A DNA stretch of 64,000 nucleotides from a virus: IMG/VR virus record IMGVR_UViG_3300007775_000001, positions 32,001 through 96,000 of that record, one strand, 5' to 3'. Positions 7,027 through 61,800 of the stretch are shown in pieces; the stretch's first letter is position 1, and each line of letters begins with the position of its first letter. The notes below the pieces were generated by a model, which was not told the origin of the DNA, did no database searches, and was given only the letters and a program-made list of their open reading frames with translations. Made by a program: the position numbers and the translations under genes.

Positions 7027-10000
7027 ATGTTTGTGCATCTGCACAACCATACCGAATTCAGCATTGCAGACGGCTTGTTCGCCCCGAAAAAATGGGTCGA
7101 AGCTATTGCAGATGCCGGGTTCAAGGGACATGCTCTGACAGACCACGGGAACGTGGGTGGTCATCTTCCGTTCTACAAGGCCATGAAGGACAAGAAACTC
7201 ACGCCGCTCCTTGGGTGTGAGTTTTATTTTGTGGATGACCCGTTAGAGAAGATCGTCGAGAACAGGCGGTCGAGTCATCTGATCCTTTTGGCGCAGAACT
7301 ACGATGGATACCGAAATCTGCTGAAGCTGCAAGCCTTGTCTTACGAGGAGGGATTTTATTTTCGGCCACGAATCGGGCTCAAGTGGTTGAAGGAATACCA
7401 CGAGGGATTGGTTTGCTTGACGGCATGCCTGGGTGGTGTGCTAAGCACCGAAGTCTGGCGCGAATTTGCTGCGAATGACGCGGGGACGATGTACAAGGGT
7501 CTTGAAGATCGCTTCAGGCTCTTGTACTCCATTTTCAGTGACGATCTGTACGTTGAGTTTCAGGGACATGAACTTGACGAGCAGGTTCGGATTCAAACAG
7601 AGTTCTACAATCGGTTGCGCAACCTGCCTGGGTTCCAGCACGTCATTACAAACGACTGTCACTACATCCTGCCTGAGCATGCACCAATTCAGACCATGCT
7701 CAAGGACTCTGCTTACAAGAAGCAGAACACCGAAGCTGGTCAGAGCTATACGACTACCGATAGTCTATGGCTGAAGCCGCCGCTGGAAGTTCTGAAATCG
7801 TTCCTCAGAAAGCATACCTACATGCCGAAGGAATTTGTTCTTGATGGTATGCGACGTACAGAAGAGGTGTTCGACAAGTGCTCGAAATTGGAATTGCCTT
7901 CTGGACAGCGATATCTTCCACGATACAGGACAGAGATCGATTCGAAGGAGCACTTCAAGGCTCTCACCGTTGGTCGGTTGCGAGAGTTCTTGAAGTCGGA
8001 CTTGCTCAGGGCTCCCCGACAAGACTACATTGACCGGTTCGCCAAGGAGTACAAGACGATCAGCAAGTACGATCTGGAAGATTACTTCCTGATCGTATGG
8101 GATATCGTCAGATTCGCTCAGGAACGCGGAATCTACACGGGTTTGGGCCGGGGGAGTGCAGCGGGTAGCCTGATCAGTTATCTCCTTGGGATCGTGCGTA
8201 TAGACCCACTAGAGCATGGTCTTTTCTTCGAGCGGTTCCTGAACGAGAATCGTTGTGAGAATGGGGAGCTTCCAGACATCGATCTGGATTTCGAATCGAG
8301 TCGTCGCGAGGAAGTGAAGGAGTATATCTACCAGACCTACGGTCATGACAAGGTCTGTGAGATCGGAACCTACGGTCGGATGAAGCTGAAGACCGGGATC
8401 ATCGATTTTGGGACGATGCTTGGTGTGAGCGACCGGTCAAGTTTGCTCAAGATTACTACTGCCCTGGAGCTTGATCGGGCACACGCTGACAATCTTGATG
8501 AGGCTATGGCGGTTGATCCGGCTCTTCAGAATCTCGTGGAAAAGAATCCTCAGTTTGGATTTTCGATTCGGGAGTTGTTGGGGCAGATCAAAAGCCAAGG
8601 CGTTCACCCAGCCGGGGTGCTCATCGCCAATCAACCCATTGATGAAATTGCGGCTGTCAAGACACAGCGCGCCAAAGATAGTGGCGAGAAGGAGCGGATT
8701 AGGGTCACTCAGTCGGAAGACAAGTACCTCATCGCTCAGGGTCTTGTGAAGATGGATGTACTTGGGATCAAGGAGTACGATCAGCTTCGCTACGTGGTTG
8801 AGAACGCTCCAGACAAGCCGTTCACAATGGAGAACTATGTTGAACGGATCATGGATGACGAGCGCGACTACCAAGCTGCCAAAGCTCGTGGCGTGGATGT
8901 GGAGCGCAAGTATCCCATCCAGACAAAGGTCTGGGAGATGTTCTCCTCCGGTCAGACGGACGGTGTGTTTCAGTTTGCATCCGACGGAATGCGAGAGCTA
9001 CTGAGATTGATGGAAGCCAATACACTGAACGATCTGATTGCCGCGAATGCTCTGTATCGACCTGGATGCCTTGAGAACGGATGGCATACCCTGTACTGCA
9101 AGCGCAAAAGCGGTGAAGAAGCAGTGGCATACGTGCATCCAGACTTGAAGCAAGCCTTGGGGTCTACCTATGGTGTGATCGTGTTCCAAGAGCAGTTCAT
9201 GGAAGCGATTCACAAGCTTGGTAGCATCCCTTTGGTTGATGCCGACACAATCCGGAGTGCGTTGGGCAAGAAGGATAAAGACAAGCTCGCAAAATTCAAA
9301 GGTCAGTTTGTGAGTGGCGCGGAGTCCAAGATTGGGAAGAGTGAGGCGGAAGAGGTGTGGGATCAGATCGAGAAGGCGTCTGGGTATACCTTCAACCGGT
9401 CTCACTCCGCCGCCTATTCAACGCTGGCGTACCTGTCACAATATATGAAGGTGAGGTATCCAGGACTGTACTGGGCGGCTCAGCTTCATTGGGATACGGC
9501 CAAGAACAAGCATGACGAGGTACTTCTTGATAGGCGTGCTGCACAGGACATGGGGATCGAGTTCAAGCTTCCGTCCATCAACACATCGAAGTCCAGTTTC
9601 TACGTAGAAACTGCGAGCGGTAAGATCGTCTGGTCGCTGATTGGTGTGAAGGGGGTGGCGGAAAATACCGCCAAGGAGATTGAGGCCCATCAACCGTTCT
9701 CGTCATTTGAAGACTTTCAGAAACGAGTCAACAAGTCCAAGGTACGCTGGAATCACATGGTTTCGCTGGCGTACGCGGGACTCTTTGATGAGTTCGGTGA
9801 CCGGCGAGAGATCGTCAAGCTTATTCATGAGCAGAAGAAGAAGCCCGTCCCTAGCTTGTCTGAACAGGACATGATCTTTGCGTACTATGAGCAGATGGGT
9901 TTCTTCGAACGCAAGCTGAAGAGGGTGTTCAGCGGGTTTGATTCGGAGACGGTAACAGAACGTGATCTGGTGTCTCATCTGAATGGCGCGGATATGTCTG

Positions 10001-10242
10001 TTGGAGGGATGATCACAGCCGTCAAACGCATCACGACAAAGAATGGTGATCGGATGGGATTTTTGACCCTGTCCGATCTGGACGAGAGTATTGATGTTAC
10101 GGTGTTTCCTGATCAATGGTCGAAGCATGTGACTGATCTGAAGGTCGGGAACATCGTTGAAATCTGGGGACAGAAGAACAATTACCGTGGCTCTGAACGC
10201 ACATTGGAGCTTAGAGACCTCAAGGTGATCAACACGAGATAG
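7027..10242 (+). CDS. dnaE: DNA polymerase III alpha subunit (DnaE-type)
   Basis: PHP HLHNHTEFS; GRGSAAGS; PDIDLDF; YTFNRSHS; C-terminal OB fold; GAGGA RBS supports ATG 7027. Confidence 0.97.
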   Translation: MFVHLHNHTEFSIADGLFAPKKWVEAIADAGFKGHALTDHGNVGGHLPFYKAMKDKKLTPLLGCEFYFVDDPLEKIVENRRSSHLILLAQNYDGYRNLLKLQALSYEEGFYFRPRIGLKWLKEYHEGLVCLTACLGGVLSTEVWREFAANDAGTMYKGLEDRFRLLYSIFSDDLYVEFQGHELDEQVRIQTEFYNRLRNLPGFQHVITNDCHYILPEHAPIQTMLKDSAYKKQNTEAGQSYTTTDSLWLKPPLEVLKSFLRKHTYMPKEFVLDGMRRTEEVFDKCSKLELPSGQRYLPRYRTEIDSKEHFKALTVGRLREFLKSDLLRAPRQDYIDRFAKEYKTISKYDLEDYFLIVWDIVRFAQERGIYTGLGRGSAAGSLISYLLGIVRIDPLEHGLFFERFLNENRCENGELPDIDLDFESSRREEVKEYIYQTYGHDKVCEIGTYGRMKLKTGIIDFGTMLGVSDRSSLLKITTALELDRAHADNLDEAMAVDPALQNLVEKNPQFGFSIRELLGQIKSQGVHPAGVLIANQPIDEIAAVKTQRAKDSGEKERIRVTQSEDKYLIAQGLVKMDVLGIKEYDQLRYVVENAPDKPFTMENYVERIMDDERDYQAAKARGVDVERKYPIQTKVWEMFSSGQTDGVFQFASDGMRELLRLMEANTLNDLIAANALYRPGCLENGWHTLYCKRKSGEEAVAYVHPDLKQALGSTYGVIVFQEQFMEAIHKLGSIPLVDADTIRSALGKKDKDKLAKFKGQFVSGAESKIGKSEAEEVWDQIEKASGYTFNRSHSAAYSTLAYLSQYMKVRYPGLYWAAQLHWDTAKNKHDEVLLDRRAAQDMGIEFKLPSINTSKSSFYVETASGKIVWSLIGVKGVAENTAKEIEAHQPFSSFEDFQKRVNKSKVRWNHMVSLAYAGLFDEFGDRREIVKLIHEQKKKPVPSLSEQDMIFAYYEQMGFFERKLKRVFSGFDSETVTERDLVSHLNGADMSVGGMITAVKRITTKNGDRMGFLTLSDLDESIDVTVFPDQWSKHVTDLKVGNIVEIWGQKNNYRGSERTLELRDLKVINTR
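9594..9613. repeat. dispersed palindrome copy 1 (inside dnaE)
   Basis: CAGTTTCTACGTAGAAACTG, perfect 20-bp palindrome. Confidence 0.9.
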
Positions 10243-15090: not shown

Positions 15091-15385
15091 TTTTGTCTGC
15101 GGGTCATGCGATTACACCAAAGATGACTTCGCTGAGATTGATGATGTACTCGCTTGTCCCAGATGTGGCAAGGAGATGCGTCATGCTTGGTTGTCTGCCC
15201 CCAATTCGAATCAGTTGGGTGCAGAAGGTTCTTCTAGTTCAATCGCTGCCATGCAACAGTCGTTCCGTGAGAGGTTTGTCAAGAAGGAAATGGACGATGT
15301 TCGAAATAAGCATGGGAGCAATTTTGATGAGTCGCTAGTCAGTGCAGAAGCGGCGCGGATCAGAAAGGACAAAGGGCTGTCATGA
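15074..15385 (+). CDS. FmdB-like zinc-ribbon protein
   Basis: MP..DFVCGSC..CPRCG. Confidence 0.7.
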   Translation: MPVLRDFVCGSCDYTKDDFAEIDDVLACPRCGKEMRHAWLSAPNSNQLGAEGSSSSIAAMQQSFRERFVKKEMDDVRNKHGSNFDESLVSAEAARIRKDKGLS

Positions 15386-16182
15386 AACCAAGTCTTCGGA
15401 AGCAGTACGTTGGGAAGGAGTTTTCAGTTCTCGACCATGGTTTTGTGCAACTGGTCGATGTGATGGGGGATGATGGTGCTATCGTTTCTGCTGCTCGTAC
15501 TTCAGTCCACAATGTCAAGACGAGTCGTGATACGCGGGGTTTGATCAACTATCTCATGCGGAACATGCATACGTCTCCGTTCGAGATGGTTGAGTTCAAG
15601 TTTCTCTGCAAGATGCCAATCTTTGTGGCCCGTCAGTGGGTGCGTCATCGGACAGCTTCGATTAATGAGCAGTCTGCTCGCTACGGTGTGATGGACGATG
15701 AGTTCTACATGCCTGAACAGTGGCGTGTGCAATCCAAGAACAACAAGCAGGGATCATCTGAAGAGGTTGTGGATCAGTTCTACACGGGTCGCATCCAGAC
15801 CAGGGCTCAGGAGATCAGGAAGGAAGCGTACGATCACTATCAGAATCAATTGAACATTGGTGTTGCTCGCGAAGAGGCGCGGATCGATCTACCCCTTTCT
15901 CTCTACACCAAGTGGGTGTGGAAGATTGATCTACTGAATCTGTTCCGGTTCTTGAAGCTTCGGATGGACTCACACGCTCAGTACGAGATCAGGGTCTATG
16001 CGAACGCCATGGCAGAGATCGTGCGTGCTTTTGTTCCGATAGCTTGGGATGCGTTTGAGGAGCACTGGCTATACGCCAAGACGCTTTCTCGCAGTGATTA
16101 CGATGCGTTGAAGAAATTCGCTGTGACAGGAAGCCTTCCAGCCGAAGCAATGCGAATCCTTGGGATGCCACTCGCGACATGA
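15382..16182 (+). CDS. thyX: flavin-dependent thymidylate synthase
   Basis: HTSPFE; RQWVRHRTASINEQSARY; HAQYEIR. Confidence 0.96.
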   Translation: MKPSLRKQYVGKEFSVLDHGFVQLVDVMGDDGAIVSAARTSVHNVKTSRDTRGLINYLMRNMHTSPFEMVEFKFLCKMPIFVARQWVRHRTASINEQSARYGVMDDEFYMPEQWRVQSKNNKQGSSEEVVDQFYTGRIQTRAQEIRKEAYDHYQNQLNIGVAREEARIDLPLSLYTKWVWKIDLLNLFRFLKLRMDSHAQYEIRVYANAMAEIVRAFVPIAWDAFEEHWLYAKTLSRSDYDALKKFAVTGSLPAEAMRILGMPLAT

Positions 16183-19970: not shown

Positions 19971-20456
19971 ATGTCTGGCGGATTGACCAATCGTCGTACT
20001 CCCTCGAAGAAGAAGCCCGGCGTGCGTCAACGCATGCGTGGGCTTCAAGGTATCGCTCAGCACAACGCCAGTCTCGCTCAAGCGAATGGCAAGAAACTTT
20101 CAGAGGCTTCTCATTGGATTGCTGCCCTGGCTGTGACAATTCATGGACTGAAGGAGAGATTCCCCGGTCTGGAAGAAGAAGTCGTTTGGAAGTGGGCGGA
20201 TTGGTTTGTCAATGCTGGCAACTACACCAAAGAGCAGATTGAGGAGCTTCAGGGTGTGGTGGCAAAGCTGCCCATCGACAAACTCAGAGTGGTGGAGAAA
20301 CCAAAGCCGGAAGTTACGCCAGAGTCAAAGCCAAGGGCTCGATTCACAAGGAACCGGGATGGCAACAATCAGAACGTGCAAGGTGGCGGACTACCTCAGA
20401 TTGGATCAGGTGGTCATCCATCCGGAGAACACAGAGCTTCGAAGGATCAGTCCTGA
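19971..20456 (+). CDS. hypothetical protein
   Basis: GGAGG RBS before ATG 19971. Confidence 0.6.
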   Translation: MSGGLTNRRTPSKKKPGVRQRMRGLQGIAQHNASLAQANGKKLSEASHWIAALAVTIHGLKERFPGLEEEVVWKWADWFVNAGNYTKEQIEELQGVVAKLPIDKLRVVEKPKPEVTPESKPRARFTRNRDGNNQNVQGGGLPQIGSGGHPSGEHRASKDQS

Positions 20457-21081
20457 GAAGTGGGAGTCTCTGAAGAAGTCGATCCTTGAGCATGGTGTCT
20501 ATCGTCCCATCCATGTGTGGGAACAAGAACGATGGGCTTTGTCTGGCAACCATCTCCTGAAGGCGATTCGGGAGTTGGTGCAAGAGGGTCACACTCTTGA
20601 ATCGCCTTCAGGTCGTGGTTTTGTGCCGGTGATCTTCCATGATGTAGGGGAGAAAGAAGCCAAGGCGATCTTCTTCCAGACCAACAATACGTTCGCAGAT
20701 TGGGTGGAAGACAATCTGAGCAACGCGATCAAGCGATACAACGAGATCGGTGGGGATGTGTATGGCCTTGGTTTTCCTCAAGGGGAAATCGAAGCGATCA
20801 TGGGTGTGGTTGATCAGGCGATCAAAGAGACTGCACCCATCATGGAGAAGGTCGAGGAGTTGAACGAGCAGGTTATCCAAGATGCTGTCAACGATCCGCC
20901 TGTCGAGGCTCAACGGACTTTGACACTGAGCGAGGGTGTGTACGATCAGCTTGAGGGTGTGCTGATCGACATTGCAAAGCGGCTCAATCCAGATTGGAAG
21001 AAGGGCGACTCCTTCAATGAGGCGGTTGCTGCTCTGGTTCAGATTTGGCGAGAACGACAACTGTCTTCACAGGTCGCATGA
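20359..21081 (+). CDS. ParB/Srx N-terminal-domain protein
   Basis: HPEN..R..LKKSILEHGVYRPIHV..LSGNHLLKA. Confidence 0.8.
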   Translation: MATIRTCKVADYLRLDQVVIHPENTELRRISPEKWESLKKSILEHGVYRPIHVWEQERWALSGNHLLKAIRELVQEGHTLESPSGRGFVPVIFHDVGEKEAKAIFFQTNNTFADWVEDNLSNAIKRYNEIGGDVYGLGFPQGEIEAIMGVVDQAIKETAPIMEKVEELNEQVIQDAVNDPPVEAQRTLTLSEGVYDQLEGVLIDIAKRLNPDWKKGDSFNEAVAALVQIWRERQLSSQVA

Positions 21082-21806
21082 TCAAGGTCGAGGAGTGGGA
21101 CGGTCTTCAGACCAATGTGGTCATCCACGGTGCTTTCGAAGAGGTCTACAAGAAGGCACAGATCAGGGCTGATCTTCTGGTTACGAGTCCGCCCTATCCA
21201 ACGTCTACCACGAGATACATCCCCTCACTTGGCGGGAATGTGAATGACCGTACGGTGACGCGGAACAGGTTGTACAGCAAGAGTCATGCGAAGGTTGGGG
21301 AGTCCGACTATCTCAGATGGGCTCAGCTATGCATCGGTTTCGCTCCTCTGGTGTTCTTCAATATTCCTGCTCGTGTGCTTGATTACGATCTTGGTGCAAA
21401 GCCGTTTAACCATGTCGTGTGGGTGAAGACCAATGGAGCGGTGCCATTTGCTCACAAAGGGGTGGTACGTTTCCATGAGTTTATATTGCTTTTCGGTGAT
21501 CACAAGCGGTTGAACAAGCCGATGCGCTCAGTTTGGGAGATGGCTTCACAACGAGGGTCAGATCATCCAGCACCGTTCCCGATCAATCTTCCGGCGAGAG
21601 CTATTCATTATGGTAGCAAGCCTGGAGACCTTGTGTTCGATCCGTTTGGAGGAAGCGGGACTACTGCGGCGGTAGCCAAAGCCATGAATAGGCGTTGGCT
21701 CACATGCGACACAGAACAGGAGTTCTGCGAGATGATGGATGATCGAATTGCGAGGGTGAGAACTTCAGGCGACGGGAGCCAACTTGGGGGAAGGGAGGGA
21801 AACTGA
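21078..21806 (+). CDS. DNA amino-methyltransferase (N4-C/N6-A, beta class)
   Basis: TSPPY; HPAPFP; FDPFGGSGTT. Confidence 0.92.
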   Translation: MIKVEEWDGLQTNVVIHGAFEEVYKKAQIRADLLVTSPPYPTSTTRYIPSLGGNVNDRTVTRNRLYSKSHAKVGESDYLRWAQLCIGFAPLVFFNIPARVLDYDLGAKPFNHVVWVKTNGAVPFAHKGVVRFHEFILLFGDHKRLNKPMRSVWEMASQRGSDHPAPFPINLPARAIHYGSKPGDLVFDPFGGSGTTAAVAKAMNRRWLTCDTEQEFCEMMDDRIARVRTSGDGSQLGGREGN

Positions 21807-22549: not shown

Positions 22550-22780
22550 ATGGCAGAACAGGTTGATCGTCCCACCCATTACGGGGGAACAGATTGCATC
22601 GAAGCAATGGAGAAGATGCTGTCCAGAGAAGAGTTCATTGGTTTCCTTCGAGGAACCATCTTCCGATATCAATGGAGATGGCGTCAGAAGAACGGCGAGC
22701 AGGATTTGGAAAAGGCTCGTTGGTACGATAGGTATCTCAAGGAGTACATGCAGAGATGCTCTGAACCAGTTTCTACGTAG
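22550..22780 (+). CDS. DUF3310 family protein
   Basis: VDRPTHY..DCIEAM..RYQWR..KNGEQDLEKARWY. Confidence 0.88.
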   Translation: MAEQVDRPTHYGGTDCIEAMEKMLSREEFIGFLRGTIFRYQWRWRQKNGEQDLEKARWYDRYLKEYMQRCSEPVST

Positions 22781-22784
22781 AAAC
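22769..22784. repeat. dispersed palindrome copy 2
   Basis: GTTTCTACGTAGAAAC, overlaps the TAG stop. Confidence 0.9.
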
Positions 22785-22786
22785 CC

Positions 22787-26658: not shown

Positions 26659-27017
26659 TGACACGAGAAGAAAACGACAAGCGGGAACGCCAGATCAGAT
26701 GTGTACGTAAGATGCTGGTCACCCTAGACCAGTTGTTGACTAGGAATACGTTCGATCAGGCTGAGAAGCATTACTATGGCCGCAAGAATGAGATTGTTGG
26801 CGGTGGCAACAACAGTATTTTTACGGGTTTGCGCAACGCTGCGTTTAGTGGTCAGCCATTCTACAAGTTCTCAGACGGTCAGACTGAGGTGGCTTATGAC
26901 TATCTGGATGAACGATTGGTGCTCGTGAATCCCAGCAAGCCTGACATGGAAGAGCGTCTGAAGAGAGACGGGGCCATGTTCGTTCCGCTCGTGGAACTGA
27001 TCAAGAAGTCGAGCTAG
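26658..27017 (+). CDS. hypothetical protein
   Basis: Coupled ORF. Confidence 0.6.
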   Translation: MTREENDKRERQIRCVRKMLVTLDQLLTRNTFDQAEKHYYGRKNEIVGGGNNSIFTGLRNAAFSGQPFYKFSDGQTEVAYDYLDERLVLVNPSKPDMEERLKRDGAMFVPLVELIKKSS

Positions 27018-27033
27018 TTTCTACGTAGAAACT
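27016..27033. repeat. dispersed palindrome copy 3
   Basis: AGTTTCTACGTAGAAACT fills the intergenic gap. Confidence 0.9.
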
Positions 27034-36515: not shown

Positions 36516-36601
36516 GGAAGGATGGCTGAGTGGCCGAAAGCACCGCATTGCTAACGCGGCGGACGCAAGTCCCGTGAGTTCGAATCTCACTCCTTCCGCC
36601 A
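36516..36601 (+). tRNA. tRNA-Ser(GCT)
   Basis: Loop TTGCTAA; encoded CCA. Confidence 0.93.
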
Positions 36602-36602
36602 A

Positions 36603-36616
36603 TTTCTACGTAGAAA
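36603..36616. repeat. dispersed palindrome copy 4
   Basis: TTTCTACGTAGAAA immediately after tRNA-Ser. Confidence 0.88.
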
Positions 36617-36634
36617 CTGATTGAGAGGTTGACT

Positions 36635-37144: not shown

Positions 37145-37208
37145 CTCAGCTAGGCAGAGCGGCTGTTTTGTAAACAGCGGGTCGGCGGTTCGATTCCGTC
37201 CAGGGGCT
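37135..37208 (+). tRNA. tRNA-Thr(TGT)
   Basis: GCTGT-TTTGTAA-ACAGC. Confidence 0.93.
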
Positions 37209-37209
37209 C

Positions 37210-37280
37210 TTAGGGATCGTCTAGTGGTAGGACGCTGGGCTCTGAACTCAGAAACCTTGGTTCGAATCCAAGTCCCTAAA
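37210..37280 (+). tRNA. tRNA-Gln(CTG)
   Basis: CTGGG-CTCTGAA-CTCAG. Confidence 0.92.
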
Positions 37281-37281
37281 C

Positions 37282-37355
37282 CTGGGTGTAGCTCTTAACG
37301 GTAGAGCGCGTGCTTTGGGAGCATGAGGCTGCTGGTTCGAATCCAGTCACCCAGA
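37282..37355 (+). tRNA. tRNA-Pro(TGG)
   Basis: CGTGC-TTTGGGA-GCATG. Confidence 0.92.
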
Positions 37356-37361
37356 CTACAT

Positions 37362-37435
37362 GGCGTGGGTAGCCAAGCGGTTAAGGCAGAAGGCTGTGAA
37401 CCTTCCATGCATGGGTTCGAATCCCATCCCTCGCC
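37362..37435 (+). tRNA. tRNA-His(GTG)
   Basis: GAAGG-CTGTGAA-CCTTC; G-1:C73. Confidence 0.92.
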
Positions 37436-37643
37436 CTGGAGGCACACCAATGATCAGTTTGATGTTACCGAATGCTTCGCGTTCAGAAGTGATTGCGGTG
37501 AGTCGAATGGTTGCGCGCATGAAGGTCGGAATGCATGTCACACGGGCGAGAGACGCAGTGTGCGATCATTCGCAATGGAGTTGGGATACCCATGGTCGGG
37601 TGTGTGACTGTGGGGCGTTCATGGTTGATTTCGGAGATTGACG

Positions 37644-38012
37644 ATGGGCCACAAAGAGAAGCTGATCAAAGTGAACGCTCTGATTGACGAGGGCGTTATC
37701 CCGCTTGTGGAAGCATTGAATGAGCTTCCCCGCGTGGTGACTTACAATAGCTGCGAGCAGTACAACGGTAAGGCAGAGGTGATGTTTCATATCATCGAGC
37801 CTGAGCGTGGAGAAGAGCCACGATTCGTGCGTGATCTGTCGAAGCAAATTGCTCGCATCAACGGAGATTTTGCTGTATGCTTGAGTCTTGAATGGTTTGC
37901 TGGAGGTGATGCGTCGATGTGGCTTCGTGTCCCTACTGAGCAAGTCGAGGTGGTAGCGAGCGCGATCAGACTGATTGCTACGGAGAGAAAAAGGAATGCC
38001 TCTCAAGAATAA
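37644..38012 (+). CDS. TYW3/Taw3-like fold protein (putative)
   Basis: IDEGVIPLVEALN..TYNSCE resembles the TYW3 N-terminus. Confidence 0.45.
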   Translation: MGHKEKLIKVNALIDEGVIPLVEALNELPRVVTYNSCEQYNGKAEVMFHIIEPERGEEPRFVRDLSKQIARINGDFAVCLSLEWFAGGDASMWLRVPTEQVEVVASAIRLIATERKRNASQE

Positions 38013-38379
38013 GACCCAACCGATCTATCTAACACCGGATTGGAGATTCTACCAGGACGGTAACAACTTTGTGCTTGAGCACAAGGAGCGGGTCAGGAAG
38101 AAGGATGGTATCAACATGGCCGAGCGATGGTCGCAATTTTTTTACTCGTCGCTCGAAGCTGCTGTGCCAGGGCTGCTTAGTCGTGATATCATGGCTGGCA
38201 GAACTCTGGAGGAAATGAAGACTCGTCTTGAGGAGACGGCTCAACGGATCATCTCTGTTCTTCGGGGTGCTCCTAATTTTGGTGTAGCACAGCGGTTGGC
38301 AGATGTGGGTGAGTCAGACCCGAATGTCACGGCTGTACCTCGAAGGCGGTTTTTTCGGCGCAACCGCCAAGCAACCTAA
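37996..38379 (+). CDS. hypothetical protein
   Basis: ORF in tRNA array. Confidence 0.6.
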   Translation: MPLKNKTQPIYLTPDWRFYQDGNNFVLEHKERVRKKDGINMAERWSQFFYSSLEAAVPGLLSRDIMAGRTLEEMKTRLEETAQRIISVLRGAPNFGVAQRLADVGESDPNVTAVPRRRFFRRNRQAT

Positions 38380-38609
38380 CCAAAGCGTCGATTCTCTCTG
38401 TCGGAGTTAGAACCCGATGAGTAACACACAGCAAGTCAACATGAAGGATCACGTCGAATCGCTGATCAAGAAGGCAGCAACGGCGGCAAGAGCGGACGAG
38501 GCGATGAAGTTCTCGCAAGCTGCAACCAATGCCGCGAATGCGATGTGTGCATTGCGAGAGGCGATGAAATAGAACGGTGGCGGGCGGGATGAGTCTCGCC
38601 CGCTTTCAT

Positions 38610-38682
38610 GTTGCGATAGCTCAGTCCGGTAGAGCGGTGGGTTGAAGCCCCATATGCAGAGGTTCGATTCCTCTTCGCAACA
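38610..38682 (+). tRNA. tRNA-Phe(GAA)
   Basis: GTGGG-TTGAAGC-CCCAT. Confidence 0.92.
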
Positions 38683-38683
38683 C

Positions 38684-38712
38684 TTGACAAACGGTAGCAC
38701 ATGTAGTACAGT
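38684..38712 (+). promoter_or_regulatory. conserved promoter
   Basis: TTGACA-17-TACAGT with CACATGTAG spacer. Confidence 0.75.
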
Positions 38713-38748
38713 ACAAGAGCGGTGGATATCTTGTGGAGGAAGTGATTC

Positions 38749-38836
38749 GGGGATGTGCGTCAAGTGGCGAAGACAGCGGACTGTAAATCCGTGACCCATG
38801 CGGTAAACATCGAAGGTTCGACTCCTTCCGTCCCCA
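38749..38836 (+). tRNA. tRNA-Tyr(GTA)
   Basis: GCGGA-CTGTAAA-TCCGT; long variable arm. Confidence 0.92.
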
Positions 38837-38857
38837 CTGACAACGTGATGAGCTATC

Positions 38858-39289
38858 ATGCCGATTAAGATCGGGCGGTTCCAGGGTGAGTACAGGTTCC
38901 TGAGCAATTTTTGGCCTGCTCGTGTGAACTACGGAGGGATAGACTTCCCCACCGTAGAACATGCCTATCAGGCTGCCAAAACGGACGATCAGAAGGCTCG
39001 TTTGGAGATTGCCAAGGCCCGTACTCCTGGGGTGGCAAAACGCCTTGGGAAGCGTGTTACGATGCGTCATAATTGGGATAGCATCAAGCTCAAGGTGATG
39101 AGTGTTCTGGTGACACAGAAGTTCACGAGCAATCCGCTTCTGAAGAAGCTTTTGCTTGACACCGGAGATGCGGAACTGATAGAAGGGAACGATTGGAATG
39201 ACACCTTCTGGGGTATCTGTCGTGGGAAGGGTAGCAACCATCTGGGCAAGATTTTGATGAGTGTTCGCGAATCGCTCAGATTGGTATGA
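38858..39289 (+). CDS. NADAR (YbiA-like) protein
   Basis: FLSNF; TVEHAYQAAK; QKF; LIEGNDWNDTFWG..GSNHLGKILM. Confidence 0.93.
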   Translation: MPIKIGRFQGEYRFLSNFWPARVNYGGIDFPTVEHAYQAAKTDDQKARLEIAKARTPGVAKRLGKRVTMRHNWDSIKLKVMSVLVTQKFTSNPLLKKLLLDTGDAELIEGNDWNDTFWGICRGKGSNHLGKILMSVRESLRLV

Positions 39290-39290
39290 T

Positions 39291-39363
39291 GTGGGTCTAA
39301 CTCAACTGGTAGAGTGTCGGCCTTCCAAGCCGGATGTTGCGGGTTCGACTCCCGTGGCCCACT
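39291..39363 (+). tRNA. tRNA-Gly(TCC)
   Basis: TCGGC-CTTCCAA-GCCGG. Confidence 0.92.
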
Positions 39364-39432
39364 TAGGCAGATTGCGAGACTGGTGTGATTCGCTCCATTG
39401 TGACTGAGAGTGTCACCGTGATCTGCCTTCAT

Positions 39433-39507
39433 GGGGTATGGGACTGCTAGGGGTGGTCATCTGCCTTGCAAGCAGAACACAGCCCGGTTCGAATCCGGGA
39501 TACTCCA
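39433..39507 (+). tRNA. tRNA-Ala(TGC)
   Basis: TCTGC-CTTGCAA-GCAGA; G3:U70. Confidence 0.92.
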
Positions 39508-39603
39508 TTGGCCCGTTTGTGCTAGGTAGAGACAACGAGATCAGCTAACCACTGATCAAGCGGCTTGCCAAGGTGGTTCCTTGGTGCTGGCGGGCATTGT
39601 AAT

Positions 39604-39683
39604 GCCGATGTGGTGAAACTGGCAGACACGTCACCTTGAGGGGGTGATGCTTCGGCGTACAGGTTCGAGTCCTGTCATCGGCA
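39604..39683 (+). tRNA. tRNA-Leu(GAG)
   Basis: TCACC-TTGAGGG-GGTGA. Confidence 0.92.
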
Positions 39684-39685
39684 CT

Positions 39686-39880
39686 GTAGGGAGTAGGGCA
39701 CGGGGAGTTGTCTACGCTGTGAAAGCTGGTGATCGATCAATCGCCGGTGAGGGTTGAATGGTTAAGACCGGAAACCCAAGTAGCAGCTATCGAGGCGTAC
39801 CCCACGGTTAGGCCTAGTAACTGCGCGAAGCGACCAGAATGCCGAGCATGAACGGGGGTTCGGGACTTCTCGTTTCCTAC
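39686..39880 (+). ncRNA. candidate ~195-nt structured ncRNA
   Basis: Ends pair (GTAGGGAG/TTTCCTAC, CGGGGAGTT/GACTTCTCG); no ORF. Confidence 0.45.
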
Positions 39881-39887
39881 TTCTGAC

Positions 39888-40229
39888 ATGGAACACAAAG
39901 AGCTATTCAACGCGATTAAGGCTCTGTATAGTGAAGAGCCATACGTGACTCAGCATGAGATTGCGGTAGCTCTGAATCAAATGAAGGTACGGCCAATTGG
40001 TGCGAGACAATGGACAGCGTCAACCGTATCGTTGTTCATGGTGCATCATGGGTGCGTGAGACGGAAGCTGCACAGGGCTTTCGAATGGCGGCGGCCTTCA
40101 CAGATCGGTTGTAGACAATGCATTGAGCAGGGCGTAGAGTACGATACCAAACAACTTGCTCCATGGATCAGAATCGCCATAGAGCGCGGGAAATTGAGGT
40201 TGAGAGATGAGAATCCATACACGGCGTGA
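39888..40229 (+). CDS. hypothetical protein (recombinase-type HTH-like)
   Basis: HEIAVALN..ARQWTASTV. Confidence 0.5.
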   Translation: MEHKELFNAIKALYSEEPYVTQHEIAVALNQMKVRPIGARQWTASTVSLFMVHHGCVRRKLHRAFEWRRPSQIGCRQCIEQGVEYDTKQLAPWIRIAIERGKLRLRDENPYTA

Positions 40230-40252
40230 AGAGATGGAGAGCGAGGAGATGC

Positions 40253-40328
40253 GCTCCCATCGTCTAGTGGTCTAGGATATCAGACTTTCAATCTGATGAC
40301 ACGGGTTCGAATCCCGTTGGGAGTACCA
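40253..40328 (+). tRNA. tRNA-Glu(TTC)
   Basis: TCAGA-CTTTCAA-TCTGA; encoded CCA. Confidence 0.94.
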
Positions 40329-40412
40329 CATGTTCAAGAAGCACGATTGGGTTCTGGTGGTTGTTGTTGGAGCATTGTGTGCTGCTGTCATGTGGGTGTG
40401 GTTGTTCTAGCT

Positions 40413-40488
40413 ACCCTTGTGGCGGAACTGGTAGACGCGCTACGTTCAGACCGTAGTTGTATTGGGAGTTCGAGTCTCCCCAAGGGTA
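40413..40488 (+). tRNA. tRNA-Leu(CAG), short variable region
   Basis: CTACG-TTCAGAC-CGTAG. Confidence 0.87.
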
Positions 40489-40491
40489 TTT

Positions 40492-40567
40492 GCCTCTGTG
40501 GCCTAGTCTGGTTCAGGGCAACAGGTTGTCAACCTGGAGATCACGGGTTCGAATCCCGTCAGGGGCG
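40492..40567 (+). tRNA. tRNA-Asp(GTC)
   Basis: Loop TTGTCAA; G discriminator. Confidence 0.92.
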
Positions 40568-40572
40568 TACAC

Positions 40573-40646
40573 AGGTCGGTAGCTCAGCTAGGTAGAGCGG
40601 CGGCTTCCAAACCCGCTGGTCGAGGGTTCGAATCCTTCCCGGCCTG
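40573..40646 (+). tRNA. tRNA-Trp(CCA)
   Basis: Loop TTCCAAA; acceptor AGGTCGG/CCGGCCT. Confidence 0.9.
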
Positions 40647-40666
40647 CTTTCAAAAGGAGATTGACC

Positions 40667-40879
40667 ATGAAAATCAGTGTTGATGCATTCGAAGATGCTG
40701 TGACCCGATGGAAGCAGAGTGGCGCACGAGACGGAACGCATCAACGCCTGGGTCAATACTTGATGAACGTCTTCTTTGCTCATCAGCCGGGGATTTCTGT
40801 TCCTGGAATTTTCTACGAGGAAGACTGGAAGAAGGCGTACGCAATGTTCAGGGAGCGGTTTGTCGATAACCAACTCTGA
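40667..40879 (+). CDS. hypothetical protein
   Basis: QRLGQYLMN..IFYEED; AGGAG RBS. Confidence 0.65.
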   Translation: MKISVDAFEDAVTRWKQSGARDGTHQRLGQYLMNVFFAHQPGISVPGIFYEEDWKKAYAMFRERFVDNQL

Positions 40880-40941
40880 CTTCCTCTTCAGGAACAGTTG
40901 CAAGACTTGAAAGAGAAGCTGATAGAGGAGATGAAGATCAT

Positions 40942-41013
40942 TGCTCCGTAGCTCAGGGGTAGAGCGGTGGTTTTACAAGCCGCTGGTCGTAGGTTCGAAT
41001 CCTACCGGGGCAA
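40942..41013 (+). tRNA. tRNA-Val(TAC)
   Basis: GTGGT-TTTACAA-GCCGC. Confidence 0.9.
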
Positions 41014-41029
41014 CTAGGTTGTGCAATCA

Positions 41030-41103
41030 GGGCTGGTAGCTCAATCGGTCAGAGCGGCTGACTCATAATCAGAAGGCTGCTGGTTCGAGTCCAGCCCAGC
41101 CCA
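41030..41103 (+). tRNA. tRNA-Ile2/Met(CAT)
   Basis: Loop CTCATAA; GGGCT acceptor suggests Ile2. Confidence 0.88.
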
Positions 41104-41106
41104 TAT

Positions 41107-41180
41107 TGGACAGTAGCTCAGTCGGTTAGAGCGCGATCCTGATACGGTCGAGGTCGAAGGTTCGATTCCTTCCTGTCCAA
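41107..41180 (+). tRNA. tRNA-Ile(GAT)
   Basis: CGATC-CTGATAC-GGTCG. Confidence 0.92.
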
Positions 41181-41257
41181 CTGACGATCCGATTTGGTAG
41201 CGTTGATGCTCCATAGACGTTCTGGGTCGAGATCAGTTGTACTTTAATATGGAGCAT

Positions 41258-41377
41258 GATGGTGGCGTATCAACGCATGCGGTGAAGCCGTGCGAGTAAC
41301 TGTTGGCGCGCATGACAGGAATCGACGGAAGAAACTGCCGTGGCGAGTCCCCGGAGTGATAACCGGGCGTCACCATC
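41258..41377 (+). ncRNA. candidate multi-branch structured RNA (~120 nt)
   Basis: GATGGTGGCG/CGTCACCATC closing helix enclosing four hairpins. Confidence 0.5.
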
Positions 41378-41381
41378 ATCT

Positions 41382-41454
41382 GTGGATGTAGCTCAATCGG
41401 CAGAGCGTCACGTTGCCAACGTGAAGGTTGTGGGATCGTTGCCCATCATCCACT
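41382..41454 (+). tRNA. tRNA-Gly(GCC)
   Basis: TCACG-TTGCCAA-CGTGA; atypical T-loop ATCGTTG. Confidence 0.88.
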
Positions 41455-41459
41455 TGCAC

Positions 41460-41532
41460 TGTCCTGTAGCTTAGTCGGTAGAGCGAGTGCCTGTTAAGCA
41501 CTTTGTCGTTGGTTCGAGCCCAACCAGGACAG
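41460..41532 (+). tRNA. tRNA-Asn(GTT)
   Basis: AGTGC-CTGTTAA-GCACT. Confidence 0.92.
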
Positions 41533-41554
41533 CTAAATCTAAAAGAGACCAACC

Positions 41555-42226
41555 ATGACCATGCGGGACTGTGACATTCATGCGGCAATCGAAGCCGGTG
41601 AGCTTTCAATTGATCCGTACGATCCGGATTCCGTAGGGCCTGCATCAATCGATCTGACTCTGAGTGTTTATTTCATGAGGGTGGATGGTCAGGGTACGGG
41701 TGGGGTGATCAGAATGGATCAACCCATCGAGTACGAGAAGTTTACTCGCCAGCGTGTGATTATCCCTCCGAAGTCCTTCATTCTTGCTAGTACCATCGAG
41801 CGTGTTACTCTTCCCGCTGATATCTGTGCAAAGGTCGAGGGTCGATCATCTATCGGTCGTATGGGTCTGTTTGTACAGAATGCTGGATGGGTTGATCCTG
41901 GTTGGGATGGGTGTCTGACTCTGGAACTGTACAACGCCAACGAGTTCCCCATCGAGATCGTTGCTGGTCGCCGGATTTGTCAATTGGTGTTGGATCGTAT
42001 GACCGGCCCGGTTGACAAGCCCTATGCTGGAAAGTACAAGGGCGATGGATCGGTAGCAGGTAGTCGTATCTACAAGGATTGGGAAGCGTTGCTTGATGAC
42101 TGCGAAATCTGCAATGGAGAGTTAGGCGGGGTCAAGGGAAATGAGAACGTCATTCATGGCAAGAAGGTCTGTGACTACTGTTATGCGAAGATGATGCGAG
42201 GAGAGATTCTGTACCCCGAAGGTTGA
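41555..42226 (+). CDS. dcd: dCTP deaminase
   Basis: PASIDLTL; EGRSSIGRMG; AGWVDPGWDG; RICQL; YAGKY. Confidence 0.93.
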   Translation: MTMRDCDIHAAIEAGELSIDPYDPDSVGPASIDLTLSVYFMRVDGQGTGGVIRMDQPIEYEKFTRQRVIIPPKSFILASTIERVTLPADICAKVEGRSSIGRMGLFVQNAGWVDPGWDGCLTLELYNANEFPIEIVAGRRICQLVLDRMTGPVDKPYAGKYKGDGSVAGSRIYKDWEALLDDCEICNGELGGVKGNENVIHGKKVCDYCYAKMMRGEILYPEG

Positions 42227-42233
42227 CAAATCT

Positions 42234-42314
42234 GCCCGCGTGGTGGAATCTGGTAGACACAACAGGCTCAAACCCTGTGGCTTCGGCGTCCCGGTTCGAA
42301 TCCGGGCGCGGGTA
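42234..42314 (+). tRNA. tRNA-Leu(CAA)
   Basis: ACAGG-CTCAAAC-CCTGT. Confidence 0.92.
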
Positions 42315-42394
42315 TTTTTTTGGCTTGAGTTGAGAGAATTGTCCGTCAATGTCAGAGAACGTTGATACATCAGGATACACCAAGAGGAATCACG

Positions 42395-44422: not shown

Positions 44423-44438
44423 GTTTCTACGTAGAAAC
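44423..44438. repeat. dispersed palindrome copy 5
   Basis: GTTTCTACGTAGAAAC, intergenic. Confidence 0.9.
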
Positions 44439-46450: not shown

Positions 46451-46834
46451 ATGGAAGCCCGAATCCCTATCGTGCGGGTGACTGCAAAGGACTGCCGTTG
46501 GGATTACTTCAGGGCTTCCGGAGCCGGTGGTCAGAAGCGCAACAAGACATCTTCAGCCGTTCGCTGTACCCATGACCCTAGCGGTGCGGATGGGACAGCG
46601 TCAGATACCCGTTCGCAATCCAAAAACAGAGAGCTTGCTTTCTACAGGATGGCAAGTTCAGACGAGTTCAACAAATGGCTGCGTTTGGAGACAGCAAGGC
46701 AGACGGGTGAGCAGGAACGTATCGAGAAGCGTGTTGAAACGCAAATGCAGCCCGAAAACCTGAAGGTAGAGGGTCGGGTCAACGGTAAGTGGAAACCCCT
46801 GGAGATTGACGATGACGGAAGCACAACAAGTTGA
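46451..46834 (+). CDS. GGQ-domain peptidyl-tRNA hydrolase / release-factor homolog
   Basis: RASGAGGQKRNKTSSAVR..RSQSKNRELA. Confidence 0.88.
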   Translation: MEARIPIVRVTAKDCRWDYFRASGAGGQKRNKTSSAVRCTHDPSGADGTASDTRSQSKNRELAFYRMASSDEFNKWLRLETARQTGEQERIEKRVETQMQPENLKVEGRVNGKWKPLEIDDDGSTTS

Positions 46835-49290: not shown

Positions 49291-49737
49291 ATGTCTTCCT
49301 ATCTTCCTCCTGCGAGAGAACGGTTGCGGAATCTTGTGGCAACGTGTGTAAGGCATGGTGACTTCACACTGAGAAGTGGTCAGAAGAGCGATACGTTCAT
49401 TGATCTTGAGGAGGTGTCTAGCACTTCATTGTTCATGATTCTCTTTCTGGATGTGCTCAGGGAGATCGTGCGAGGCGATGTGTATGACACCTTCATTGGC
49501 CCGTCGAAGGGTGCTGATCCTCTCGTCTATGTTGGACGAGAGGGTATCAGGAACAGGCGGGGGACAAGAGCGATTGTGTTGGAAGACGTGTTGACAACGG
49601 GTGGATCGGTGCTTCGTTGTATCGAAGAGTCCGGAATGACCCCTGTGCGGATTGTTTCAGTTGTGGACAGAGGGTGTTCGGTTGAGCTACCCGCTCCCTA
49701 TACCCCAATCCTGTCTATTGGCGAAATTTCTACGTAG
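49291..49737 (+). CDS. orotate-PRTase-like phosphoribosyltransferase
   Basis: GDFTLRSGQKSDTFID; VLEDVLTTGGS PRPP-binding motif. Confidence 0.8.
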   Translation: MSSYLPPARERLRNLVATCVRHGDFTLRSGQKSDTFIDLEEVSSTSLFMILFLDVLREIVRGDVYDTFIGPSKGADPLVYVGREGIRNRRGTRAIVLEDVLTTGGSVLRCIEESGMTPVRIVSVVDRGCSVELPAPYTPILSIGEIST

Positions 49738-49740
49738 AAA
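49727..49740. repeat. dispersed palindrome copy 6
   Basis: TTTCTACGTAGAAA, overlaps the TAG stop. Confidence 0.88.
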
Positions 49741-58589: not shown

Positions 58590-58819
58590 AGATTCTGCTG
58601 ATGATCACTGTGGTGGCGATGTCGGGTGTCAAAGCTCCTGCAATCAGCTTCAAGAGCATGTGTGATGCGATTGATCCTGAAGCTATCACGCTCATCACAA
58701 TTCGGCCTTTCAGGGACGCACAGAATGGGACTGTTATTCCAGGCGTTGTCTACCAGTGTGTGCGGATCACGGAAGGTGAAGAGAAGGGCACCAAACCTCA
58801 AAGGAAGCAGAAGGCATGA
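58586..58819 (+). CDS. small protein with hydrophobic N-terminus
   Basis: ATGA coupling on both sides. Confidence 0.5.
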   Translation: MKILLMITVVAMSGVKAPAISFKSMCDAIDPEAITLITIRPFRDAQNGTVIPGVVYQCVRITEGEEKGTKPQRKQKA

Positions 58820-61800
58820 GCAGTTTCTACGTAGAAACTGAATCTGTTTCCAAGGGTGGTCGAGAGGTTGCTTCCGTTGCGGTGATGAGCGGGTCGAATC
58901 TCTTGATGGGCCGCCGCAAGGATTCTGGCGAGTGGACTTTGCCGGGCGGTGGATTGGAACCGGGCGAGAAGCCCGAAGAAGGGGCCAAGAGGGAGCTTTT
59001 TGAGGAGGCAGGGGTCAGGGTAGGGCAGCTCCGATATCTGGGCTCCAGGCGCGTTAAGGGCGTTCCTGATAACGATCTGATCACGGTGCATGCCTTCCTG
59101 GTGCATCAACATGGGAAGGCAACTGTCCGAAACGATCCTGACAAGGAAGTGAGCCGGTGGTCATGGATCGATGTGAGCAACGGTCTTCCGAAAGCGATTG
59201 AAGATGAACTTCACTCCCCACGGAACGTGGTTCTCATGATGATGGGTATTCAGAAAGAGCCAAAACCGTCCCTGGTGATTCGATCTGACCTGGGGCCTAT
59301 CGACCTATCCAAGATGTATGGAGGAGGGGTTGGAGAGGCTTCTGACAGCGAATTTGGTACCTATTCTGGCGGTGGTGGGAAAAAGCCGGGTGGCCCTGGT
59401 TCTCGCGGTGGAAAGGTGATCGGACGTACACGGTCTGGGAAACCGATCTACGAGAGCGCATCCCATTATGGTCACAACAGCTTCTTTGCGGAAGAGCATC
59501 TTCAGGCTGCTGAAGCGCACAAGCATCATGCAGGGAGTTTGCTTGAACACATGAAGGGCAACCTTCATGGGAATACTTCGAATTTCAAGACGCTGATGGG
59601 CAAGATTGAAGCCCACATGACTGAGGCCGATGAGCATCGGAAGAAAGCTGGAACCGCTCCAAAAGCTCCCCGCAAGAAGGCCGAGCCGGCCAAGAAGGAG
59701 TATCGCTATGCAGCTTCCGTATTCGATGATTCGGATATCATCAAGAGTCTGGAGGCCATAGTTAAGCATGTCGAAAAGCCCGGTTCTCGTGGTGGTCATA
59801 TCATCGCCTGGAGAGATGGCGAACCGATTTATGGAAAGGAGCAGCCAAAAGTTAAACGTAAGGTGGCTAGTGCTACAGTCAAATACACAACAGCATTGAG
59901 TCCTAGTGGGAAGAAAGAAAACGTGGCTGTTCATTTGAATCCATCCGCTGATGATTTGGCTGAACATATTCCAGCCGGTGCAAGAGCGTGGCTTCTGCCG
60001 GGTGGAAATTTGTATGTCATGGACAACAAGAATATTTTGCATCTTTCTGCTATCGAGTCTGTGATGAATTCTGGATTCATCACCAAGCAGCAATTCAGAG
60101 ATATCATCCCGCCAAAGAGTTTCTTGAGTGATACCGATCCTTCTGAGGGTATCATGTTGGAGAGAGTTGGTAATTCCAATATGTTTGTGTTGGGTGAATC
60201 TTATGAAGGCGGTGTTCCGGAGGGTGATGAGCTATCTGACATCAAGGATTCGATCAGAGCTTTCAAGAAAAATTCAAAAGGCGTGATCATCCGGCCAAGT
60301 AGTATTAGAGATTTCAATGTCGAAGACTACTTGCATATGAGCTTCGATCAAGAAGAATTTGATCTGTGGAAGGCGGATGATAAGATGATTTCCACTCCCC
60401 AGAAGGGGATGGTTAAAAAGCATGAACATCTTGTCCGCGTCCCGAAGACACCAAGCCATATGAGCTTTTTTGTGAAGGCTGCTCCAGGAGAAGTCCGCCC
60501 TGGTCACAAGTATTTGCGACGGTACAGACGGAATGATCAGTGGGTATACGTCTATCGCGAGCCAGAAGGTGATACCCGTGAATTGAACGAGGAGGCTATG
60601 TCGCTTCTTCACCATCTTGCGGCGCGTGGTGACGAAGATGCCACGTATCTTCTGAACAACCTGAAAGAGAAAGCGGCTGACGAGGTTCTTGATCGTGAGT
60701 TGAATGGCACGGAACGTCATGATGTTGTGCAGATGATTCGGAACAGTCTCGATCAGAATGTGTTCCGATATTTGAATCAGTATACTACGAGCCCGTTCCA
60801 TCAAACGCTCACACGGAATCGTGTGACGTTGGATTCCGTGATGTCTCAGGTTCAGGGACAGACATTGCGCGGTCTGCTGACAAGTTATCACAACGCCCTG
60901 CGAGATGTGGATCGGGCTCATTCGACATTGCAGATCACGAGTTCTCAGAACACTGATGCTCGCGGTGCGGGTGGTTATGCAAATCTTGCGTACAACAGAG
61001 CCTTGCAGGCGTTGGAGACTCGTACTGCGTTCTTGCCAGCGCGCTATTCCGAAGTCCATCGGAGAGGTACACGGAGCGGTTCGAATGATCTTGAACCGTT
61101 TGTGAACACTCAAGAGATACGAGAAGCCGCTGAGCGCCAAGAGCGAGAGCGTCAAGCTGCCGAAGCTGAACGCGAACGACAAGCCGCTGAAGAACGCGAG
61201 CAGATCATGGGTGAGTATCGCACCAAGATGACCGGTGCGATCATCGATCATCTTGATCCTAGCGTTCATGTTTCTCCTGACAAGATTGCGACCATCCATC
61301 GTGCTCTGAAGAACATGTTCGGTGGCAATGTTCCTACACGGGAACAGTGGCCTTACGACTTTTCACAGTATGGGTACAGGGTCAAGATTTCTGATGTGGC
61401 CGCTGACAACAATACCATCTCGTTCGCACTGAGCGCGACCAACGCTTCTGGAGAGCAAGTCACTCGTTCATGGCGTCGGAATTGGCGGAACAACGGTGGT
61501 CATCCAGCGATCTACAACGCGCTCCTGGAGACCTATCCATCCGCTCGTGGGACTGGCCCTGAGATTGGCGAGTTGATCAACAAGGCTCAGAACAAGTTGA
61601 TGCATGAGACCGATCCTGACCATGGTGTGATTGGAGTCTTCGCTGCAATGACAGTGGGTGGCTACAATTGGGCCAATCAGGGCTTCAGATTTGATCGGGC
61701 AAGTGGTGATCGTGGTGTGGTTTTGATGCAGTTTAGGAACTTCCTGGCTGAGCATGGGATCAGATTGACAGACGAGGAACTGAGTCACTTCAAGGAGCCA

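Follow-up and report, generated by a model that had tools for sequence, protein, structure and literature searches.

Distribution of the palindromes

The DNA considered here is a stretch of 64,000 nucleotides (hereafter the window) from an uncultured soil phage, comprising bases 32001-96000 of a 114,950-bp IMG/VR record (IMGVR_UViG_3300007775_000001; genome G000) whose two ends overlap by 123 bp. The G+C (GC) content of the genome is 52% and its genes lie nearly all on the + strand. Dispersed along the window are seven exact copies of a palindromic 14-mer, TTTCTACGTAGAAA, starting at 9597, 22770, 27018, 36603, 44424, 49727 and 58824. The initial annotation of this DNA had described seven copies of a parS-like palindrome with a common 14-bp core, and the count is borne out; the starts that it gave are those of the longer palindromes around the core and agree with the present ones. 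None of 100 dinucleotide shuffles of the window yielded the 14-mer, and the window holds no degenerate copies at one or two mismatches. Counting and mapping over the full genome, a check that the annotation had proposed, gives 13 evenly spread copies with the extended palindrome consensus cAGTTTCTACGTAGAAACTg. A 16-mer form is present in 10 of these, and the copy at genome position 12458 is a 28-bp palindrome.

The copy at 9594-9613, located by motif search and assessed by codon usage, is a 20-bp consensus palindrome inside dnaE (DNA polymerase III alpha; 6979-10242, + strand), the only gene to carry an intragenic copy, where it encodes S-F-Y-V-E-T. At 22768-22785 the internal TAG of the motif is the stop codon of a DUF3310 gene, and at 27016-27033 the flank 'tAG' provides the upstream stop; in both cases an ATG follows 3 nt past the core. 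The copy at 36603-36618 lies 1 nt 3′ of tRNA-Ser(gct), where a cluster of tRNA genes ends, and the one at 44423-44438 is intergenic. At 49727-49740 the internal TAG ends a PRTase-like gene, with a cold-shock-domain gene downstream. The last copy of the window, 58821-58840, occupies the junction before a giant gene encoding a NUDIX-headed protein of 1289 aa, of which it forms codons 2-8 (M-S-S-F-Y-V-E-T).

With gene junctions defined from a codon-usage gene caller run on G000, 12 of the 13 copies lie at junctions, whereas 86% of positions are deep inside genes (binomial estimate ~6e-10). The placements given in the initial annotation (dnaE, stop codons, a gene start, between genes) were correct, but the conclusion drawn from them, that the copies are not tied to promoters, was incomplete, since the copies are tied to gene structure. 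Nine copies touch the upstream stop codon or lie within 5 nt of it, the internal TAG of the motif being that stop in three of them and the flank 'tAG' in two more, and in four copies the next ATG is only 3-7 nt beyond the motif. The circular gaps between the 13 copies range from 4.2 to 13.6 kb with a coefficient of variation of 0.34; a value this low has a P of 1e-4 if positions are drawn at random and of 5.5e-5 if junctions are. Removal of the dnaE copy would leave a gap of 24 kb. The codons of that copy are informative in themselves, as the annotation had anticipated in proposing a test for codon constraint. F-Y-V is a conserved DnaE segment, and the codons used are rare in the genome (GTA, 9% of Val codons; AGT, 18%; ACT, 22%), so that the string has a probability of 6e-4 given its peptide (product of relative usages). 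Therefore it is the DNA sequence rather than the peptide that is under selection at this position.

Repeats of this kind might be microhomology marks left by mosaic recombination, or remnants of small mobile elements, with no trans-acting reader. Several copies do abut lineage-specific genes, and the 44423 copy, unchanged in an 88%-identical relative from an estuary run, stands at a boundary where the homology of that relative's contig stops ~13 nt upstream. Scars would hardly be expected to stay letter-perfect over 14-20 bp across genomes with only ~45% protein identity, to be evenly spaced with no decayed members, or to be maintained by rare codons in dnaE, and this origin is very improbable. 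In run X1, from the probable source sample, two contigs follow the window as far as 58840, where the palindrome ends, and diverge from 58841, beyond which their sequence resembles the stretch downstream of the copy at genome position 109433. They could represent a co-occurring variant or a recombinant with its joint in the palindrome.

DNA site or RNA hairpin

The junction placement would also suit an RNA hairpin serving mRNA processing, 3′-end protection or translational coupling, whose likeness to parS would then be incidental. It would explain why so many copies (12 of 13) sit between genes, close behind a stop codon (nine) or just ahead of an ATG (four), and why one is found directly 3′ of a tRNA; in relatives, moreover, the junction after the tail-tube gene can hold ordinary terminator-like hairpins. 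The pattern of conservation argues otherwise. All 14 core positions, including the ACGT that would form the loop, are invariant in 20-plus copies with no compensatory stem changes, and departures from the flank consensus affect one half only (AG to AA), again with no compensating change. A G-U wobble test for an RNA hairpin reveals no bias toward the transcribed strand. No T-run, which would give a U-tract in the transcript, follows the element at 12 of the 13 copies, and the stem is A+T-rich, unlike that of an intrinsic terminator. Scans of 60 kb for sigma-70-type promoters and for terminators show no association of either with the palindromes; only 58821-58840 is listed in the terminator scan, as a weak terminator-like hairpin. 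Since one copy is buried inside dnaE and the sequence is identical to a putative double-stranded protein-binding site on plasmids, a role in RNA is a very distant prospect. The pattern fits a symmetric dimeric protein that would read 9-bp half-sites on double-stranded DNA, not a hairpin.

Match to plasmid centromeres of Burkholderiaceae

The exact 16-mer GTTTCTACGTAGAAAC was scanned over 185,579 bacterial and archaeal species, represented by one genome each. It occurs at 62 loci, of which ~30 belong to Burkholderia, Paraburkholderia, Caballeronia or Cupriavidus. Many of these Burkholderiaceae loci are arrays in which 2-7 copies follow one another at intervals of 70-300 bp. Every array examined lies directly upstream of a two-gene operon of ~220 and ~345 codons, the products of which are, by Pfam, a ParA-type ATPase (AAA_31/CbiA) and a ParB with HTH_ParB and ParB_N domains. 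In PLSDB the locus is found on 16 Burkholderia plasmids of 59-428 kb, and on the 203-kb plasmid of B. cepacia ATCC 25416 it adjoins the replication initiator gene. Five of the bacterial genomes (5.6-8.7 Mb) carry essentially all of their 16-mer copies in a single array. The plasmid sites (n=65) also follow the extended consensus of the phage beyond the 16-mer, with G/C at ±8 in 60/65, A/T at ±9 in 44/65 and C/G at ±10 in 28/65.

An identical 16-mer with the same flanks, arrayed upstream of parA-parB and beside a rep gene, identifies the element on sequence grounds as the centromere of a plasmid ParABS family, a real parS-class sequence; the architecture of the plasmid loci points to ParB as the protein that binds it there. 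The parS-like reading in the initial annotation thus gains strong support from the megaplasmid arrays. Its description of the site as phage-specific does not hold, because the sequence is shared with Burkholderiaceae megaplasmids. The canonical chromosomal parS, TGTTTCACGTGAAACA (consensus quoted in PMC5450999), is not matched, the phage element having one extra base per half-site; as had been noted from the start, the arms and the ACGT centre are the same (GTTTC-T-AC versus GTTTC-AC). Some Burkholderia arrays (e.g., G015:C23:44331 and G017:C2:1775193) also hold asymmetric variants, TTTCAACGTAGAAA, altered at half-site position -3, the position that is asymmetric in the motif of the related phage G010.

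The partition proteins of these plasmids have no detectable counterpart in the phage. For plasmid-type ParB, neither tblastn (E<=1) nor a family hidden Markov model run on six-frame open reading frames (best E 0.33) found a homologue in G000 or ten relatives. For ParA, tblastn with two plasmid ParA proteins gave nothing below E 0.26 in any phage genome, and Pfam scans of ~100 phage proteins brought up no ParA family. The arrangement of the sites in G000 is likewise unlike that of a type Ia par locus, as there are 13 single sites around the genome and no cluster at a par locus or origin. Conversely, the 62 bacterial loci encode no relatives of the phage save for one endolysin-like match, and a Protein Atlas look-up of the endolysin returned viral clusters only, with no clue to the host.

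The palindromes in related phages

Matches to an 18-mer in IMG/VR are confined to this phage family, which apparently consists of large, virulent soil myophages. Among 50,697 phage records blastn found nothing similar to dnaE and tblastn found distant relatives only, the best terminase match being 31%, to Bacteroides phages. There is thus neither a cultured relative nor a host assignment. The complete 108-kb genome G001 (GC 45%) is syntenic with G000 at ~40-60% protein identity and has six exact copies of the palindrome. The 14-mer is also carried by the fragments G002, G013 (two copies) and G003, among which GC falls to 37%; overall the motif-sharing relatives show ~45% protein identity and GC contents of 37-45%.

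Two junctions are occupied by a copy in both G001 and G000, one following a tail-tube-like gene of 133 aa and the other preceding the giant gene with the NUDIX head. A third slot, ahead of a small gene and the ParB-like gene after it, is common to G001, G003 and G010. The junction before the giant gene holds a palindrome in G001, G004, G006 and G011 as well. Conservation of the copies in relatives, on which the initial annotation had staked its proposal, is therefore divided: it extends to G001, G013, G002 and G003, while other palindromes are found in G004, G006, G010 and G011, and the complete genome G009 has no repeated palindrome.

The N-terminus of the NUDIX-headed giant protein (window 58816-58840) is conserved, reading M(K)SSFYVE in G000 and G001, MSFY.. 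in G005 and MKSFSFF.. in G010. As the S-F-Y codons make up one half-site, G005 and G010 retain only a half-site there. In G010 (L090; genome 31574-31812) the gene for a protein with an HTH_17 domain ends with a TAG inside the G010 palindrome, and the next gene starts just upstream.

Probable docking of a ParB-family protein

The match to the plasmid arrays suggests that the palindromes are very probably docking sites for a ParB-family protein. The explanation ranked first, to which a probability of roughly 0.45 may be assigned, is that a replicon resident in the host provides this ParB in trans. Since the phage has no homologue of ParA or ParB, we infer that the sites would be occupied by the ParB of such a replicon, a centromere-binding clamp of the helix-turn-helix (HTH) type that would dock on the palindromes in the infected cell. 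Clamps of ParB bound to cytidine triphosphate (CTP) load as dimers at parS and then slide and spread over roughly 10 kb. If every site in the phage loaded ParB dimers that spread to this extent, clamps would cover the whole genome, the largest gap being 13.6 kb. The phage DNA might then be positioned, held or segregated as a partitioned replicon, for example while the host is in a carrier or dormant state. The squeezing of sites into stop-start junctions, or into rare codons in dnaE, would follow from the fact that the genome has almost no non-coding space.

The same binding step could have another purpose. The sites might act as decoys that drain the ParB of a resident plasmid and so disturb the plasmid or a linked function, such as a plasmid-borne defence. 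All of the evidence for docking applies equally here, and excess parS is known to be harmful: in B. cenocepacia extra parS on a multicopy vector depleted ParB and led to slow growth and anucleate cells (PMC4948915). The loss of a plasmid takes generations, so that a lytic infection would gain nothing obvious from it, and a decoy needs neither even spacing nor conserved junction slots, since a tandem array would suffice. Titration is accordingly improbable. Together with the hairpin and the recombination scar, it is less likely than docking of a host ParB or reading by a protein of the phage itself.

Several observations weigh against a host ParB as the reader. The host is not assigned, and the GC content of the phage (52%; 45% and 37% in relatives) is far below that of Burkholderiaceae (~60-68%). 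This parS type is seen in only ~30 species genomes, so that any reliance on it would have a narrow basis. GTTTC arms and a CG centre are common to the sites of the ParB family, and a chance match of two specificities is therefore not negligible (a few percent, by our own estimate). A further difficulty lies in relatives about as distant from G000 as those that share its motif. G004 has TTATGTGATsATCACATAA at both the tail-tube and the NUDIX giant junctions, and the chance of both of its sites landing on G000 slots is, again by our own estimate, ~0.003. Before the giant gene, G006 has AATTTCGATATCGAAATT and G011 has AGTTGCGGyrCCGCAAC. G010 carries ~11 copies of the slightly asymmetric AACTTCGACGTAGAAGTT, among them one at the FYVE position of dnaE and one after the tail-tube gene. 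The G010-type motif has no match in 401 Burkholderiales genomes, and in metagenome contigs it gave 22 single matches and no arrays. Different palindromes in the same slots look like the product of co-evolution with a reader encoded by the phage.

Candidate readers encoded by the phage

A reader of this kind would be KorB-like. It might be the protein with a ParB N domain, alone or together with its methyltransferase partner, or else some unrecognised small protein, and at operon junctions throughout the genome it would serve as a clamp, roadblock or co-repressor. Specificity and sites would evolve together within each lineage, and the match to plasmid parS would reflect shared ParB-type recognition and not the use of a host protein. 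The swapping of palindromes within slots and a G010 variant that, within the limited searches made, has no counterpart in bacterial arrays are better explained in this way than by a host ParB.

The rival candidate in the window is a 240-aa protein encoded at 20359-21081 (+ strand), the N module of a split ParB-DNA-methyltransferase, as indicated by PHROG matches to ParB-like proteins and methyltransferase N-termini. Its partner at 21078-21806 (+ strand) is a predicted N6/N4 DNA methyltransferase (PF01555, 5.7e-28; phrog_67/498), and the two reading frames (window 20359-21806) overlap by a few bases. Members of the ParB-N family are fused to PF01555 in the metagenomic relatives P0017, P0020 and P0022, adjacent to it in G009 and unlinked in G001. 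The family profile matches ParB/Spo0J (8e-6) and Noc (1.5e-3). In the AlphaFold model (predicted local distance difference test, pLDDT, 82) residues 8-118 match the N domains of Noc, ParB and KorB with Z 9.6-11.8 and a root-mean-square deviation (rmsd) of 2.3-2.6, so that the model clearly points to a ParB-type N domain (ParB/Srx-fold, CTPase-type). A palindrome just upstream of the gene pair to which this family belongs in G001, G003 and G010 would suit such a reader, as would the retention of GNHRLLA, a form of the GxxRxxA motif, in G001, G009, G010 and G011.

The details of the protein are less favourable. The GxxRxxA motif is not intact in G000, where it reads GNHLLKA, and G000 has the most sites yet lacks the conserved Arg. 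The region after the N domain is acidic, with a pLDDT of 57-74. Foldseek alignments span ~230 columns of ParB, Noc and KorB, with the part past the N domain at low confidence; structural alignment with KorB up to residue 151 (Z 9.2, rmsd 6.1) and with Spo0J (Z 4.3) gives weak matches, and hhalign against the plasmid ParB aligns the N domain alone, with a probability of 8%. The putative DNA-binding stretch does not co-vary with the motif, the G001 protein being closer to that of G010 than to that of G000, and G009 retains both the ParB-like protein and the methyltransferase while having no repeated palindrome. On these grounds the proposal in the initial annotation that the ParB-domain protein is the binder is weakened. 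Its other candidates fare no better, as the DUF262 protein at 25371 is only a GmrSD_N fragment and the frame at 10766 has no DNA-binding match.

The HTH_17 (excisionase-type) protein encoded at 5924-6148 (+ strand), also among the binders first proposed, was rejected; it is found only in G000 and G010 and is absent from G001, which has the identical motif. It carries the sole sequence-specific DNA-binding domain recovered in Pfam and PHROG scans of ~100 phage proteins, in which no repressor, ribbon-helix-helix (RHH) or HTH_ParB domain was found. Phyletic profiling for genes present in motif-bearing genomes and missing from G009 left only small proteins without DNA-binding features. A reader encoded by the phage is a tentative alternative, the main rival to docking of a host ParB and somewhat less probable.

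Comparison with known systems

In parS sites of the Bsr type, found on secondary replicons and megaplasmids of Burkholderiales, a 16-bp palindrome combines T-rich arms with a CG at its centre (PMC5450999). The phage element, and with it the plasmid family that it matches, resembles these systems in all three features (PMC5450999, PMC4948915), and it is letter-identical, flanks included, to the repeats on Burkholderia, Paraburkholderia and Cupriavidus plasmids. The arrangement differs in that plasmid parS is arrayed at one locus with parA-parB, whereas the phage has single sites over 115 kb and no parA or parB in cis. The six-base core also differs, being TACGTA in the phage as against a composition of 2C, 2G, 1A and 1T in the Bsr sites studied; its specificity may therefore be one that is not yet characterised.

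The closest precedent among phages is phi29 of Bacillus, which has five host-type parS sites in 19 kb and exploits Spo0J (PMC2731898). Both are classed as lytic phages with no partition genes of their own and several copies of a host-type partition site. They differ in that phi29 carries chromosomal parS and is linked to spore entrapment, whereas the sites here are of the plasmid type, number 13 in 115 kb, involve no sporulation and have predicted binding only. Dispersed sites for a ParB-family clamp are known from the IncP plasmid RK2, on which KorB loads with CTP at OB operators and slides to distant targets (PMC11790492). The likeness lies in short identical palindromes dispersed over a replicon and in a phage protein whose N domain is of the ParB/KorB type. 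KorB has a ParA-type partner, IncC. It also has a defined HTH, and KorA beside it. The protein of this phage differs in that its GxxRxxA motif is without the Arg, its family is linked to methyltransferases and its HTH region is not confidently modelled.

Invariant repeats are also found in mycobacteriophages. Those of Cluster O are 17-bp dyad repeats, dispersed and conserved, whose function is not established (PMC4351075), and the stoperators of Cluster A are asymmetric sites read by a monomeric immunity repressor with which they co-evolve (PMC9283540). As in the present family, tens of short invariant repeats occur genome-wide, mostly in tiny intergenic gaps, but the sequences are unrelated and neither type matches a plasmid centromere. 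Already known, then, are host-type parS on a phage (phi29), operators of a ParB clamp scattered over a replicon (KorB) and phage dyad repeats that are both dispersed and invariant. What appears to be new is a phage with the exact centromere of a plasmid family spaced evenly along its genome and with no partition genes, of which no earlier description was found.

If a ParB from the host or its plasmid does dock on these sites, this would add to phi29 a second, quite dissimilar example of a bacterial partition system put to use by a phage. The system would be that of a plasmid, in Gram-negative soil bacteria, and would cover the whole phage genome; the fitness of the phage would be tied to the presence of a particular megaplasmid, and the parS type would offer a handle for predicting the hosts of uncultured phages. 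In its fullest and more doubtful form, the proposal is that phages of this family have the centromere of a megaplasmid resident in the host inscribed at even intervals in their genomes and hijack the plasmid ParB, perhaps with ParA, while relatives have rewritten the slots, giving an evolving code of 'centromere mimicry' that would link phage, plasmid and host. If the reader were instead the ParB-methyltransferase module of the phage, a DNA target would be in hand for a family of phage proteins that is widespread but so far unexplained. With ParB, site and plasmids all defined, the matter lends itself to direct testing.

Other features of the window and of related genomes

The window contains 30 tRNA genes in two clusters (164-427 and 35555-42315). 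Its gene set includes an RF-1-domain (ArfB-like) protein (46451-46834), an acyl-carrier protein (36635-37144), NADAR (38858-39289), a dCTP deaminase (41555-42226) and ThyX (15382-16182), together with a T4-like recombination set of gp32, a RecA/UvsX-like protein and Mre11/Rad50-like proteins.

DnaE of G001 (78348-82625), compared with window 7027-10242, has an insertion of ~350 aa that is absent from the window DnaE and could be an intein or an inserted domain. In G009 a 42-bp unit forms tandem repeats at both ends (1-130 and 103797-103921), which could be either a repeat structure of the genome termini or a portion of a repeat within coding sequence.

A promoter-like family separate from the palindromes consists of TTGAC(A/T), ~17 nt and then ..CATGTAGTACA(gt). 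It is highly conserved and has six copies, at 24764, 38700 and 43687 of the window and at 17651, 18648 and 19840 of the genome, all intergenic and on the + strand. These are probably early or middle promoters for the host RNA polymerase. G010 has a counterpart family, GAATACAGTGTA, on its minus-strand block.

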